64,000 nucleotides of DNA from Chrysomallon squamiferum (Eukaryota > Animalia > Mollusca), in the NCBI GenBank assembly GCA_012295275.1, contig CM022669.1, forward strand, positions 14,942,001-15,006,000. The letters are read 5' to 3'. This document shows, piece by piece, positions 42,201-51,200 of the stretch. Both the position numbers and the translations under genes were made by a program. The notes beneath the pieces are model-generated. The model was not told the DNA's origin. It saw only the letters and a program-made list of their open reading frames with translations, and ran no database searches. Each line of letters starts with the position of its first letter. Within the stretch, counting starts at the first letter, position 1.

Positions 42201-45200
42201 CTCAGCTAAATACCCCAAAATTATATGTGAAGATTAAATTTCAGAAACTACTCACAGAATTAACACACCCACACCCACACACACACACACACATACACAC
42301 ACACACACAAATATATACACATACATTATTTAAATACTTCTTTCTATTATTAACATTTTAATAGTGTTAGTTACACAAACTCTTCTACCTATTCCAATGG
42401 ATTCTTTGACCACCAGGCATGGCACCTTCAATGTCGAACCTTCTTCGTGGTTGTCTTCTTCTAACTTACAAGTGAGGAGACGATCTGCTGAGGCTTTGGC
42501 AACTGCCTGTATGAAGTGGTAACACTTGTTTCTGTACAGGCTCAGCTCCCGGTTCTGTTTTGGGTTACATGTAAAGCAGGGAATTGTTATCTGAAAATAA
42601 ATTGAAAAACAGAAGTTACAAAAGCGATTCTGTTTATCAGTGATTCTCAAGAGAAATGGTTGCAGGCAGGCAGCATCCCTCTGCAGCACTGTGAGAATAC
42701 ATTATTATATTTAGACGTATAAATGCTTTAATTTCATAACATAAATTTGTCAGGTTTCAATATAAAATTCAGTCTGAGTCGAATGAACATTAAGATTTAT
42801 TTGGAAACAGGTTCTAAGATTAAAATCTACTATATTCAAATATAATTGTCAAGACTACAACTAAGTGTTTGTTGGAGCAAATGCAAGGTGCCACCTTTGT
42901 ATAGTAAGTTAATCACCATCAGGTGTCTCAGATGAAAGATATTCTTTTGTTGTTTATTTTTTTTTGTTTTTTTCAGGTGGGTTTTGAATTATGGGCTTAA
43001 CTAGGTAATGTAGAAGAAAATCAGTGTTTTTACTCTTGTTGTATGCTTTTAAATCATAAGTAATTTGAAGACTGTAATGTTCATTCTGTAAAAAATTAAT
43101 TCTAAGGGTTTTGGGGTATATGATTTTAATACAAGCATGTCAAAATTCTACATTATCCTGAATTTTGTAAACAAATGTTTATAATTCTGGAACAAAAATA
43201 TAAAACCAGAAGAGAAATTTTTGTATTTTATAACATAATTTGTATGATGGCAAACAAAATACAAAAGCAGCAAAAATTCTAAGAAACAATTTTTATCATG
43301 GCAAATAAAATTAACTTACATATGTGTATAGTTTGGCATCTTTACAGGCACTCTCCAAGACAGTGGTAACAATGGCAAATGTGGACCAAAGACACTGCCT
43401 TGAGAATTCCAAATTCCAGTCATAGCTTTTGGATATCACTGGAATTCGAGCACTCGCAAAAAGGACAGGGCTGCCTGCAATGCATGACATGGTTTATGGA
43501 ATCTGAACTTTTTACACAAAAGATTTATGCTTGTTACATTATTGCCTTTTCTGGTTCTTTATTAAGATATCAAAAAAAAAACGACAGACATAAATCAATA
43601 ATAGAAAATACAGAACACTTTTTAAATTTCATTCAAACAGAAAAGCATGATACAGTAATCTTTATCGCTGATGTCAGTTTATTTTCATTATCCAGAACAT
43701 GATTTAATCAAATTGTATTACCTCAAAGATGATATAGTCCATAAACAGATAATGTTGACAAGTATGAAATAGTGATGCTTTTATATTGTCCATTTGAGAT
43801 GCTAATATTTCATGCAAACTGTTTGTCTGAATATCAGTAATAATTATACATGAATTTATGTTTGTCAGACGAGATACATAAAGTAAGTATAAATTAGCAC
43901 AGAGACAATAATTAGTTAATGTTTCTACTAAAACTGAAATTGGGGTTAAAACATATAATTTGATGCTGAAACAGTATGTTATAAAACATTTCAAAATCAG
44001 CTTATTAATGAAATATTAACTTTAAAAAAGTTTTGATTACAGACCGATTAAAGGCAATTATTCATTACTATCTATTTTGTTGGTATGTCACAAACACTTA
44101 ATTTAAAGCTTAATATCAAATCTTTTTCTTACAAATGCTACAAATGGGTTTATACACGTCAAATTTAGTCATTTTGTATCTGAACTTGGTTTGGTTTTCA
44201 TAAGGAAATTAATCTTAGCTACTGGGTTTCTTTTTTTTGAAAGGTTTTAAAATTTTCAATAAATGGGGAAAAAAAAAAAAAAAATAAAAAAAAAAAATCA
44301 TGATTAAGTTATCTTTAAAGATGCCATAAGAAAACATTTTAATAAATAAAAGAATACCTTCCAAGTTTTCTCCTTTATTTGAGAGTAATTCTACAAGAAT
44401 GTCCACAGTGCCTAGCTGAATTAGGAATCCTGATTTCCACAGTAATGTCATCTTGAACACCTTCAGGCACTTACTAATAAATAAAATTATCATTGGGAAT
44501 TATTTTCAAAAATTTCTAGTTTTCATCAGTCAATTTGATAATAGTGTGTATCTTCAGATACTTTCTGATAAAATGATAAAATAACAGCTGTCAGTTGACA
44601 TTATTTGGTAAGTGTAAAGTTTTCATCAGTCACATTAATAATAGAGTGTATCTTCAGACACTTATTGATAAAATAACAATTGTCAGTTGTCATTACTTAC
44701 AAAGTATACAGGTTTTTTATCAACCATATTACTGACAGTGTGCAGTTTCTCATAATTAATTATTTATTCTGAAATACAGGTCTTTTCCCAAGTATGAATG
44801 ACCAAATGAATAAGAGTTTTATGACACCAAACAAAGATACCACTGTATTAATTCAAAGTGGAGATACTTCATAATCAGATAATGTTGGCAAGCATGTTGA
44901 CAAGTGATGAAATTTTAGTACATTTAGTATTGCTAACATGTTTCAGTCATGTTGTCATATGTGCTATGTTATCACAAAAAAGGAAGAAAGTTCCACATTA
45001 CCAAGGTCTGAGCTAGACAGACTCTGTCTGATAGCATTAACAATAACAGTTACAAAGTAAACTTACTTGATGAGGATTGGAAAAAAAGATTGAGGAATGC
45101 TAGGAAGAACAGAATAAAATTTATCAGCTTGCACAGTTTCAGGTGGCAGATCATCAGGCCAAAAGAATGACTGAAAATAAAAATTAAAAATTAATAATAA

Positions 45201-48200: not shown

Positions 48201-51200
48201 TATCACTGCATATAACTTAGTATAATGTAATTATGAAAACATTATCATATACCAATAAATTAGACACAGAAATTCCACTTAAAAAATGTTTTTGGAAAAG
48301 AACGTATAAGTAACTTGGAGTTAGTTTGTACATGAAGAAGGTGAAAAGGCACATACCACAGAAAATGATAGTATCGTATCTTTGCTCTGAATCATTTTCA
48401 TCAAAGATTCATTTAGTCGGCTCCCTGCTGACAAAGACAGCTGTTCATAAAAGTCAACTTTTTCCAGTTTCCATTTGCGACTTTGAAAAACAAATATTTC
48501 TTTCAGTAAACAAACAAACAAACAAATAAATAAATATTGAACAAGTAAATAAAAAAAAAAATCAATCGAGAAGCTATATTAATTATATTTCTTTTCAAAT
48601 GAAATAAAACTATATATTTCAGTCAAGCAAATTCTTGAAATTAATGATAAAAATAATTCTGATTGTTAATTTATCCATCCCATCATATCCTTTTGTCTTT
48701 CACTAGAATGACAAACTAGTTATATCAAAACAGCCCAAAGATATGCTTGGGGAGACTGACATTTGACCCATCATTCTATCCCTATTCATTTTTTAAATTC
48801 TACACATTTTCATTTTTGAAATTCTATACATTTTCATTTATGAAATTCTAAACTTTTTCATTTTTGAAATTCCACACCTTTTCATTTTTCTAAAATTCTA
48901 TGCTTTTTCATTTTTTAAATTCTACACTTTTTCATAATTGCCACACTGATTAAAAAACCTTGTGTTAAATTTTTTTTTGAATAATTAATCAAAGAATTGA
49001 AAGTATTTACACCTAGTCATGGAAGTAAAGACCACACATACCTAGAGATGAGGCTTGTTAAATTGGTAAACATAGCTTCATGCAACATCTCAAGTATGCC
49101 ACACACTTTGGTGAGCACATCAGAAGTTGAAATCTCCTGTGAATTGTCTGTGACAGCTGCCAGAGCTACAACAACATCAGAACACTGAAAACAACATAAG
49201 CATCAACATTTGTAGAAATTAAATACAACCATTTTATTTAGCAAAATTTAGATTACTATGAACAGTTATTATTATTATTATTATTATTATTATTTTGTTT
49301 TGCTATTATTATTATAGTTGTTGCTATAATATATATTGTTATTATTACTATTATATTATTATCATCATCAACATCATCATCGTCATAATTAACATTACAA
49401 TTATTATTATTATTATTCTTGCTATTATATTGTTACTGTTGTTGTTATTGTTATTATTATTATTATAAGAACAGAAAAAAAAAAGAAGTACATACACATA
49501 ATCATTCTTAATAAACAAATACATTTGAATATTTTTCAGTACTTTATGTAACAGTCACATATTTCAGTTAAATATTTTTATCGTAATGAAGAGCAAACAA
49601 AAATTTGGAGACACTAATTTTACTCTAGACACTAATTTAATTAATAATTTTTAATACATTTGGGTACATTATGCACATACCATTGAAATAACAGATGCAA
49701 CCACGGATGCTAAATTTTTATAGAGATCGTTTGACTCTATTTTGGAGGCTGGGTATGCAATTACCACCATACATCCTGGCGTTATTCCTACATCTCTTAA
49801 CGGCTGAAATTTTTGAAAATAAATAAATAAATAAATAAGGAATTAACTAAATAAATAAGTATTTAAATGAATTAATAAATAACGAAGTAAATAACTGAAT
49901 GAATTAAAAAATAAATAAATAGGCATTTGAATGAATGAATAAATAAATAAGTAAATAATTGAATACATAAATAAGGAACTGAATATAGATATTCTTCCAA
50001 AATTTCTGGTTAAAAAATAACATAACAGTAAGACCTTTCTGCAAATAAACAAATGATTTCTTAATATTTTGAAATAATTAAAGACAGCAGTAATACTGTA
50101 GAGATTATTACCAAAAATATTACTTTATACCAGTAACAGTCATTTTTATTTAATTAAAAACAACAAAGTTAATAAATATTGGGCAATTTCAGTCAACGAT
50201 CTATTGACTTATACTAGTAGTATCTTAATAGACAAGAAAATGGTCATATACTAAAAACCAAGTAACTCTCCATTTTATTTTAAAATGTTTTTTAATTTTT
50301 CATTTCCATATTTTTTCAAAAATTAAAATAAGGAAAGTTTTGACAATCCTTTTCAATCATGGTTGGGGTTTTTTTTGGAGGTTTTTTTTAATTACACATA
50401 TAAATTTGCTTCGAATGCATTTTATAATTAAACTGGTATGTAAATCATTTATAATAAGTAGAATAAAAAAATGTAAGAAGCCTACAGAGTCAGCAGGAAA
50501 TTCCAATATGTTAAGAGCTGATGAATCGTCAAGTTTCCAGTCTTTGCCATACCATAACGTCTTTACTGTTTCTCCTTTGCCCTGATTCATCAATAGTGAC
50601 CCAACACTGACAGTCAAATCAGCATGGGTCAAGACAACAAGCTTTTTACTGGGTACTTTTACATAGACTGTTTCTTTAACGTCTCCTTCTAAAACATATT
50701 TAAAATTTGGGATTTGTTTATTTTTTTCACAATCATTATTTCACTTATTTTTATCATTTTATCTGTTATTATAATCAATGAATGTTTAAGGATTTATTTT
50801 TTTAATTTATTTATTTGTGGTTTTTTTTTCTGACTTTCAATAAATAATTAATGAGATTTAACTGTCTTAGATACAAGATTTTTGATTTAAATGTATTTTA
50901 TTTTTATCATCTTCATCATCATCATCTAATAATCATTTTAAATATTCTATTTGTATTATTTTGATATTTGCATTGTTTTGGGTTTTGGGGAGGTTTTTTT
51001 TTAATTCAGTTAATATACTTCTGAAAAATACAGGTTAAAAAATTGCTATGCAATAAATAAGTATTCCTTGAAGATTTATAATAAAAAAAAAAAATACAGC
51101 TTAATTTAAAAGAAAAGGAAAACCCCCACCTAAAAACTAAAAACCAGGTTACTTATTTTATGTCTTAAATTATACACTTATGATTAAATTATTATTCCTT

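Follow-up and report, generated by a model that had tools for sequence, protein, structure and literature searches.

A mollusc TIR protein with two Roc-COR modules, the front one lacking the GTP-binding motifs but retaining a predicted Roc-COR fold

The Roco proteins of solved structure, LRRK1, LRRK2 and the Rocos of C. tepidum and M. barkeri, harbour a single Roc-COR unit per chain in the order LRR-Roc-COR-A-COR-B. How Roc-COR dimerisation is coupled to the turnover of GTP in LRRK2 and related proteins is a matter of continuing debate (PMC6337361). The gene described here lies in a stretch of 64,000 nt of Chrysomallon squamiferum DNA (the window). Its product shares with the solved Rocos the domain order, the predicted fold and, in its rear part (module 2), the complete G motifs. 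However, it contains two Roc-COR modules in one chain, the front one (module 1) is devoid of G1, G3 and G4, a kinase is absent and the outputs are TIR domains. Among intact Rocos, the MFHAS1/MASL1-like proteins of amphioxus and hemichordates (P0167, P0173 and P0177) score best with module 1, group with it in the tree described below and resemble it in the long insert of helices between G4 and beta6, but they are only about 800-1,100 aa long, with intact G motifs, typical LRRs and no second Roc-COR.

Members of the family have been encountered before. The Trichoplax protein TRIADDRAFT_57945 (P0121) has the same architecture as the window protein, although it keeps the P-loop that the scored bilaterian copies have lost. 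In the available part of a 2014 review it is listed with a ‘Ras-like domain N-terminally of ROC’, an arrangement called novel, and this domain is taken there for a Ras-like signalling GTPase instead of a Roc that has a COR of its own (PMC4104024). Aplysia LOC101848126 (P0083; PMC9334734) and oyster K1PB18 (P0055; PMC5094078) were presented in immunome surveys as LRR-Roc-COR-TIR immune genes, either novel or TLR-like. They are the same proteins as those analysed here or belong to the same subfamilies, and in the sections of these surveys that concern them one Roc-COR is listed and the front module is not recognised. The class i pseudoGTPases p190RhoGAP pG1 and AAGAB psGD are small-GTPase folds without COR, for which non-binding was shown by assay, while for module 1 it is deduced from sequence. 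Our search of the full-text literature, which leaves out most subscription papers, returned neither a pseudo-Roc nor a protein with two Roc-COR modules.

The gene model was built by hand; all introns are GT-AG and the only stop codon is at the end. It encodes 3,303 residues in 64 exons on the minus strand, and the closest proteins in the set compared are P0033 from Gigantopelta (67%) and P0031/P0032 from Haliotis. The main features, in the direction of transcription and with their basis in brackets, are:

7832..55350, minus strand: whole gene, with two Roc-COR modules, LRRs, an EF-hand-like segment and TIR domains (hand-built model).
54693..55350, minus strand: exon 1, charged low-complexity N-terminus, aa 1-219 (sequence).
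51277..54328, minus strand: exons 2-6, cysteine-containing LRRs preceding module 1, aa 220-384, labelled ‘F-box/LRR-like’ from their sequence pattern (tblastn with Haliotis; orthologue model with LRR secondary structure).
50486..50688, minus strand: exon 7, pseudo-Roc beta1 and degraded P-loop (about 50591-50644), beta2, beta3 and degraded G3 (LNILEFPADS, 50486-50515) (profile alignment, motif scoring, spliced RNA contigs).
49681..49803, minus strand: exon 8, beta4 and alpha3, arginine finger absent after beta4 (profile alignment, RNA contigs).
49042..49184, minus strand: exon 9, beta5 and degraded G4 (VALAAVTD, about 49146-49169), long alpha4 (profile alignment, motif scoring, RNA contigs).
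48357..48480, minus strand: exon 10, helical insert and beta6 (orthologue fold model, RNA contigs).
47778..48032, minus strand: exon 11, alpha5 and start of COR-A (profile alignment; RNA contigs cover both splice joints).
45909..46673, minus strand: exons 12-13, COR-A of module 1 (hhalign 90% against module 2 COR-A; Pfam COR-A below threshold in 2 of 12 homologue stretches).
42389..45170, minus strand: exons 14-17, COR-B of module 1, CxxC at its end (hhalign 96%; Pfam COR-B below threshold in 5 of 12).
40528..41666, minus strand: exons 18-20, Cys/His-rich segment and beginning of a beta-rich linker domain (tblastn matches, exons 18-19).
32762..37187, minus strand: exons 25-30, a pair of TIR-like domains lying between the modules (with single exons, Pfam TIR_2 at E 0.037 and 5.3e-06; with a local TIR profile, E 0.1 and 1.4e-09).
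25814..28129, minus strand: exons 36-38, typical LRRs and EF-hand-like segment preceding module 2 (sequence).
21821..25166, minus strand: exons 39-44, intact Roc2 with GLGGAGKT/S, ITDG, WDFAG, WNIR (arginine finger) and GSHVD (motif scoring).
17339..21228, minus strand: exons 45-51, COR-A and COR-B of module 2 (sequence).
12736..15947, minus strand: exons 53-58, two C-terminal TIR domains (sequence, TIR profile).

A linker of approximately 1,200 residues separates the modules. Neither the Haliotis nor the Patella proteins showed its TIR-like domains, and tblastn gave no match between these exons and the equivalent region of P0031 or P0005. An MBT repeat suspected by eye in this linker was not supported. 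A few splice sites in the linker and at the C-terminus had alternatives, all of them outside the region checked with RNA.

The RNA contigs back four splice joints among the pseudo-Roc exons and do not span the whole linker, so that the single chain rests on the gene model and on public models. The latter are split in several cases (P0005, P0033, P0150-P0152, P0154 and P0156). Together with the fast evolution of module 1, which changes approximately 3.7-fold faster than module 2 (76-80% versus 96-99% identity between two abalones), this could indicate that module 1 is a relic without function, or that the gene model has joined it from a separate adjoining gene. We consider this very improbable. 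The frame is open with canonical introns through 64 exons, the pseudo-Roc exons give spliced RNA, and 43 of 67 long public models carry both a scoring pseudo-Roc and Roc2 in one chain. Shorter stand-alone module-1 proteins were absent among 7,991 candidates; a later profile search gave N-half models, and those inspected break off in the middle of the architecture. Moreover, the trees of the two modules have 27 of 35 splits in common (at most 3 after shuffling), and thus both modules were inherited together across the family.

The preliminary description of the locus, made by eye, saw in module 1 a Roc without its nucleotide-binding residues. All peptides on which it relied are present on the minus strand in the exons it named: KLVVLTHADLTVSVGSLL and LNILEFPADS in exon 50688-50486, VALAAVTD in 49184-49042, FWPDD and IPQSFFPIL in 45170-45067, LLWKSG in 44473-44358 and IPCFTC in 42590-42389. 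Their counterparts in module 2 were found in exons 25166-17339, where an intron splits KLMLVGLGGAGKTSLVKAL. The loss of motifs extends beyond this species: none of the 39 front modules scored has G1, G3 or G4 intact, against 44 of 44 rear modules, a count that omits 24 proteins with a weak or no profile match, including Trichoplax P0121, which keeps G1. For G4, proposed to be FVVGSHVD replaced by VALAAVTD, the claim stands for the motif, which is intact in none of the 39, but not for the G4 Asp itself, the counterpart of which in the alignment is D506 (in AAVTD) of the window protein. In addition, the stretch from beta5 to beta6 comprises about 70 aa in module 1 compared to 24 in module 2, due to the helical insert. 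Thus, module 1 has none of the motifs of an active Roc GTPase (G1 GxxxxGK[ST], G3 DxxG and G4) and agrees, by its predicted fold and its motif loss, with the definition of a pseudoGTPase in PMC5593906. Judged by these motifs, it is very probably dead for GTP.

Atypical binding of a nucleotide or another ligand, as in class ii pseudoGTPases, would be compatible with the conservation of Glu at the G3 position (48 of 59) and of Asn three residues earlier (32 of 53), and with the Trichoplax homologue, which retains the P-loop (GNRGVGKS) and, with GTH, most of G4. We regard it as quite improbable, since the P-loop of the 39 scored proteins has neither Gly-Lys-Ser/Thr nor any conserved residue, G4 is not conserved, and three proteins of the SPRY subfamily are unmatched over the domain's N-terminal half.

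The homology of the two modules escapes simple searches. BLASTP of module 1 against module 2 gave only matches with E of at least 12, single module-1 exons had no family match in Pfam (0 of 8), and the module-1 profile (67 cut-outs, N-terminal parts only) reached no Roco in the PDB, with three unrelated matches at E<=10. At the profile level, however, the alignment proposed motif by motif holds: hhalign gave a probability of 97.4% (E 1.2e-11), collinear over 1-562 versus 3-462 and in the original register. The downstream COR, described as recognisable, was recovered as well (COR-A against COR-A 90%, COR-B against COR-B 96%). The Roc part alone reached a score of 24.0 (probability 11%), compared to a maximum of 20.05 over 30 shuffles of the columns, 14.1 for the reversed profile and 13.3 against TIR. 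This is weak; the fold predictions settle the Roc part.

These models were made on abalone (Haliotis) orthologues, which are 32-44% identical by domain to the window protein. The AF2 model of the Haliotis pseudo-Roc (pLDDT 91) has the strand-helix order of the Ras G domain, as the view of this segment as a Ras-like domain demands, and the top 50 listed Foldseek matches were all G-protein entries. In VIA, LRRK1 (Z 13.5, rmsd 3.9, 179 aligned) shared the best score with other G domains. The model of the full module 1 (pLDDT 86) matched LRRK1 and CtRoco with a Foldseek E of 8e-18, and LRRK2 in VIA with Z 21.5 (rmsd 4.1, 452 aligned). COR-A and COR-B directly follow the G domain in module 1, both in hhalign and in the Foldseek and VIA matches across both subdomains, and the orthologue models correspond with high confidence to an LRR-Roc-COR like that of LRRK1, LRRK2 and CtRoco. 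Module 1 is therefore a Roc-COR module without GTP-binding motifs, the Roc-COR fold of which is predicted to be kept. Features in the ESM Atlas, which we treat as a lead only, likewise indicate Roc/COR clusters.

Module 2 presents a different picture. Pfam Roc, COR-A and COR-B are all above cut-off in its orthologues, G1, TDG, WDFxGQ and G4 are present in 44 of 44, and it is through this Roc with intact G motifs, followed by COR, that the whole protein belongs to the Roco family. The arginine finger, which maps to CtRoco Arg543, is found in all 89 parsed module 2s and all 47 parsed prokaryotic Rocs, but in only one of 41 module 1s. LRRK1 has Ala at this position, which implies that the residue is dispensable in some Rocos. 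Without it, the front module would be unable to act in trans as an activator of the rear Roc, and its loss speaks against a role of module 1 as activating partner. At the level of sequence, the rear Roc-COR is likely the only remaining GTP switch.

The origin of module 1 was initially seen in an ancient internal duplication. In favour of this, the order LRR-Roc-COR-(linker)-TIR occurs twice in the window gene, the modules are homologous at the profile level, module 2 outscores prokaryotic Rocos with two of three module-1 profiles (medians 30.8 vs 16.7 and 7.9 vs 5.9), two introns lie within one codon of each other across the modules, and the last LRR ahead of each Roc is similar by eye. However, the broadest module-1 profile shows no preference between module 2 and prokaryotic Rocos (35.6 vs 35.9; 36 of 67), none of the 67 cut-outs scores best on the module-2 profile when other eukaryotic Rocos are offered, the preceding LRRs are of different types, and no intron position is exactly common among 10 and 12. 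A clade of modules 1 and 2 was rejected by the AU test (p-AU 0.0016), which is subject to the same pull of long branches as the tree, since module 1 and the MFHAS1-like set are both long-branched. A score gap between module 2 and PDB Rocos, considered as support for duplication, was dropped after the comparisons with the broadest profile and with wider Rocos. We therefore do not retain this origin, which would require divergence past recognition and independent gain of the helical insert, and regard it as unlikely.

Module 1 is instead closer to MFHAS1-like and protist-type Rocos, while its own module 2 is no closer than prokaryotic Rocos. Its best intact relatives among 1.84 billion proteins, four in number, reach 67-76 bits, while module 2 does not exceed 53.9; three of the four either bear the name of MFHAS1 homologues or fall into clusters with them. 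The long alpha4 insert is common to module 1 and the MFHAS1-like Rocos; protist-type Rocos without it score nearly equally (202 vs 210), and both sets were picked for their resemblance to module 1, with profiles of greater depth (Neff 5.3-5.6 vs 3.5), which inflates their scores. In a tree with long branches and a selected comparison set, from which vertebrate MFHAS1, DAPK1 and LRRK are absent, module 1 groups with nine long-insert Rocos and one other (SH-aLRT 95), and a smaller tree excluding the MFHAS1-like set did not resolve its position (support 31). Taken as sequence evidence, this suggests that module 1 probably arose by fusion. An MFHAS1-type Roco gene would have been fused ahead of an LRR-Roc-COR-TIR gene before the placozoan/bilaterian split, and the front G motifs would have eroded afterwards, leaving remnants in Trichoplax and in hemichordates, of which Ptychodera has GLCGGKKS and ATH.

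On balance, we lean towards the view that this ancient fusion left a dead Roc-COR as a nucleotide-independent scaffold and Roc2 as the sole GTP switch. Roc2 would cycle GTP and pair with another Roc2 via the invariant arginine, as in prokaryotic Rocos, and so control the TIR outputs, while the rigid LRR-pseudoRoc-COR arm may serve as docking platform for partners or sensor domains. The term JAK-like denotes a pseudoenzyme and an enzyme paired in one chain, with a contact that regulates the active domain. Such an arrangement is conceivable here, although we consider it doubtful: module 1 would be a tethered decoy, which docks on Roc2-COR2 via COR-B as in Roco dimers, provides neither arginine finger nor nucleotide, and keeps the rear switch and the TIR outputs off until a signal arrives. 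COR-B indeed contains 11 of 25 well-conserved module-1 columns and is the most conserved non-LRR part between the window protein and Haliotis (44%), and the modules were kept together across the family. On the other hand, these columns are mainly the Gly, Trp, Pro and Leu typical of all CORs and appear to form no evident surface patch, module 1 changes much faster than module 2, the linker is long, and the invariant Roc2 arginine is better explained by a second nucleotide-loaded Roc2 as partner. The wider proposal of a single-chain Roco heterodimer, in which an MFHAS1-derived dead Roc-COR clamps the active one via COR-B and withholds the arginine finger as a built-in autoinhibitor of GTP-gated TIR signalling, is tentative to the same degree. 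Were it true, an overlooked pan-invertebrate family would provide a natural test of Roco dimerisation as the driver of GTP turnover. For module 1, a scaffold role seems somewhat more plausible to us than direct partnership with Roc2.

The existence of one live and one dead Roc-COR per chain from placozoans to many bilaterian phyla is important for several reasons. It implies that a scaffold role is separable from the switch role, and the family offers a graded series from an intact P-loop (Trichoplax) to a fully eroded one (molluscs). Module 1 would be a Roc-COR addition to the short list of pseudoGTPases. It further gives an identity to some 600 residues which, in dozens of ‘uncharacterized’ 3,000-aa TIR proteins from molluscs and other invertebrates, have either no Pfam assignment or one below cut-off.

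The family was found in Placozoa, lophotrochozoans, a nematode, hemichordates and amphioxus; a truncated amphioxus Roc (P0003) had no score on the pseudo-Roc profile. Partner or sensor domains (SPRY, MBT, PLAT, TIR and dynein-stalk-like) are swapped between subfamilies, and a second subfamily carries a large insert, which together with the three partly unmatched SPRY-subfamily proteins points to modular tolerance, in line with a scaffold role. The cnidarian ‘NG1’ gene, reported in the accessible text of PMC5094078 with FBXL-like LRRs, a Roc, a weak COR and TIR, is by this description a candidate stand-alone relative of module 1.

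Module 1, the front pseudo-Roc with its COR-A and COR-B (50688-42389, minus strand), sits within a single long minus-strand gene, in a window with the composition of animal DNA (28% GC, microsatellites abundant). The model of this gene was built by hand, and in-frame alternatives existed for a few of its splice sites, located in the linker and the C-terminus. The annotated features are:

55350 to 7832, minus strand: Roco gene model; 64 exons, 3,303 residues, all introns GT-AG, sole stop terminal
32762-37187, minus strand: two TIR-like domains between the modules, unmatched in Haliotis and Patella proteins
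61079-63857, minus strand: 3' exons of a gene of glycosyl-hydrolase family 116; four exons match Pfam PF04685
183-344, minus strand: exon of a Misato tubulin-like gene; PF10644

The family 116 gene, which we take to be GBA2-like, lies upstream of the Roco gene on the same strand, and the Misato tubulin-like exon lies downstream. From its N-terminus, the Roco protein comprises a charged, low-complexity start, LRRs containing cysteine, module 1, and a Cys/His-rich segment with a beta-rich linker. Next come the two TIR-like domains, then LRRs accompanied by an EF-hand-like segment, module 2 (the intact Roc-COR, whose Roc is termed Roc2), two TIR domains and a C-terminal region. The TIR-like pair between the modules is possibly a lineage-specific insertion; a 65-base minisatellite (score 1073, 34306-35197) reaches the acceptor region of exon 28. 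The nearest stored proteins are from gastropods, namely P0033 of Gigantopelta, with 67% across the rear 1,800 aa, and P0031 and P0032 of abalone (Haliotis). The TIR and LRR domains suggest that the protein may act in innate immune signalling.

RNA contigs from four runs of one study, which carry neither strand nor level, were mapped on 46400-50750. They contain the splice joints 46672/47777, 48032/48357, 48480/49042 and 49185/49683, individual records run through exons 7-12 in order, and the loose ends agree by reading with exons 6 and 13. In the RNA contigs the donor used after exon 11 is 47778; the intron 3' of this exon (47480-47790) contains several degenerate copies of its final ~60 bases, including the donor site. 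At position 49682, in the last codon of exon 8 and outside the G motifs, the contigs of the four runs differ from the window by one letter (by reading, Thr in RNA and Met in the window), reflecting either a polymorphism or an assembly error.

Pairwise BLAST of module 1 against module 2 gave no match (E>=12), and Pfam searches with eight single exons of module 1 detected no family. The homology becomes clear when orthologues are included. A profile of 67 cut-outs, all from regions upstream of Roc2, aligned with module 2 from end to end (97.4%, E 1.2e-11) and in the motif-by-motif register that the preliminary description had proposed. The COR recognised there was likewise recovered, COR-A matching its module 2 counterpart with 90% and COR-B with 96%. 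The Roc part alone scored 24.0, barely over 30 shuffles (at most 20.05). In 12 homologue stretches Pfam gave sub-threshold matches to COR-B (5/12), COR-A (2/12) and Roc (1/12).

Structure was predicted for the abalone orthologues. The model of the G-domain part of P0032 (226 aa, pLDDT 91) has six strands and five helices arranged as in Ras, together with a helical hairpin. Among the Foldseek matches listed all were G-protein entries, and the top VIA-align match was LRRK1 (Z 13.5, rmsd 3.9, 179 aligned), level with other G domains. The full module of P0031 (671 aa, pLDDT 86) matched LRRK1, CtRoco and LRRK2 in Foldseek and VIA (E down to 8e-18; Z 21.5, rmsd 4.1, 452 aligned). A Ras-like fold is therefore predicted, and the models and profiles together support reading module 1 as a pseudo-Roc-COR.

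The loss of the GTP-binding motifs was counted in 68 proteins, the window protein and 67 stored proteins with >1,250 aa before Roc2. Of these, 44 matched the pseudo-Roc profile with >15 bits and 24 were unscored. In the 39 that cover the P-loop region, G1 (GxxxxGK[ST]), G3 (DxxG) and G4 were each found in 0/39, which bears out the reported absence of nucleotide-binding residues, while module 2 had G1, TDG, WDFxGQ and G4 in 44/44. Thus, module 1 of the window protein is strongly predicted to have lost GTP binding. Across module 1 sequences of the family, the G3 Asp position holds Glu in 48/59. None of 17 further N-terminal matches from the library search had a P-loop at the mapped domain start, three or four of them being poorly mapped. 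Ptychodera P0065 retains GLCGGKKS, ATH and a G5-like SGQG. Trichoplax P0121 (TRIADDRAFT_57945), one of the unscored proteins, retains GNRGVGKS and GTH and has lost DxxG; the accessible part of PMC4104024 describes a Ras-like domain N-terminal of its ROC and proposes an active Ras-like output.

GTPase folds without G motifs are known as pseudoGTPases (PMC5593906 and PMC12490416, accessible parts). Family members are given with one Roc-COR in the portions seen of PMC5094078 and PMC9334734. We found no description of a pseudo-Roc or a double Roc-COR in the accessible open literature; subscription papers, preprint supplements or database domain annotations may hold one.

The preliminary description derived module 1 from an internal duplication, in which case it should be nearest module 2. 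Comparison with module 2 and 53 other Roc-CORs, nearly all prokaryotic, was mixed: two profiles favoured module 2 but the broadest did not (medians 35.6 vs 35.9; 36/67; hhalign 96.0 vs 89.5 for module 2 vs others). Exact intron coincidence between the modules (10 and 12 introns) was not found, two introns lying within a codon. Searching 1.84 billion representatives for the module 1 profile yielded 391 matches at E<=0.001, and among the matches listed 58 of 144 new proteins had intact G1 and G3. Only two of the 58 are full-length double Roc-COR family members, whose best match is their own module 1. The four best intact outsiders among the matches listed cover most of the profile and scored 67-76 bits, all above the module 2 cut-outs (n=111, at most 53.9). 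Three of them carry the name of MFHAS1 homologues from amphioxus or Ptychodera or fall into a cluster with such proteins, and one is unnamed. Like module 1, these outsiders have a long helical insert following G4, with a spacing of 75-87; module 1 of the window protein has about 70 here, and module 2 has 24.

None of the 67 module 1 cut-outs scored best on the module 2 profile (41 long-insert, 25 short protist-type, 1 prokaryotic), the long-insert and protist-type sets having been selected for likeness to module 1 and their profiles being deeper. In a mixture-model tree of 36 rows, with long branches and with vertebrate Rocos absent, module 1 grouped with long-insert Rocos (SH-aLRT 95), and a clade of both modules was rejected (p-AU 0.0016). 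The duplication is not supported, and module 1 probably arrived by fusion. The sea-anemone gene NG1 (FBXL-like LRR, Roc, weak COR and TIR_2 in the accessible part of PMC5094078) resembles the front half of the window protein, and its product may be an active relative of module 1 that stands alone.

According to the part of PMC4721548 available, the active site of the partner in prokaryotic Rocos is completed by an arginine finger, Arg543 in C. tepidum. The post-beta4 residue of CtRoco would be this position if five extra residues of the construct are subtracted, an offset deduced from the chain length and the S542 label in that source. Arginine is present here in 89/89 parsed module 2 sequences (of 111) and 47/47 parsed prokaryotic Rocs (of 53), but in 1/41 of module 1; LRRK1 differs in having Ala. 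Module 1 is thus predicted to offer neither nucleotide nor finger. It would be unable to activate Roc2 in trans, and the invariant arginine of Roc2 is best explained by pairing with a second Roc2. For these reasons we favour, with modest confidence, module 1 as a nucleotide-independent scaffold over a tethered inhibitory decoy, which seems rather unlikely.

Relatives of 2,400-3,300 aa are present in gastropods and bivalves, in a brachiopod, nemerteans, annelids, rotifers and a flatworm, in the nematode Plectus, and in hemichordates, amphioxus and Trichoplax; for a chiton there is an N-half model. At least three subfamilies exist in molluscs: that of the window protein, an MBT-bearing one and a SPRY-bearing one. 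Trees of the two modules were built from 38 proteins, after removal of every cut-out no longer than 520 aa and of 21 named rows that were near-duplicate or partial. They had 27/35 splits in common (label shuffles at most 3), with a total branch length of module 1 ~3.7 times that of module 2. Between two abalones, identity is 76-80% in module 1 and 96-99% in module 2.

In three SPRY-subfamily proteins (P0081, P0095, P0100) the first half of the pseudo-Roc had no match; a SPRY domain apparently replaces it and the LRRs, while beta5 onward and the COR are kept. In another subfamily, annelid, brachiopod, nemertean and flatworm members (P0093, P0096, P0085, P0118, P0142) carry a dynein-stalk-like insert within module 1 (PF12777, below or at cut-off). 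The inter-module linker is a domain-swapping site; it holds a PLAT domain in abalone P0031 and P0032 (residues about 1160-1270) and a C2 domain in an oyster orthologue.
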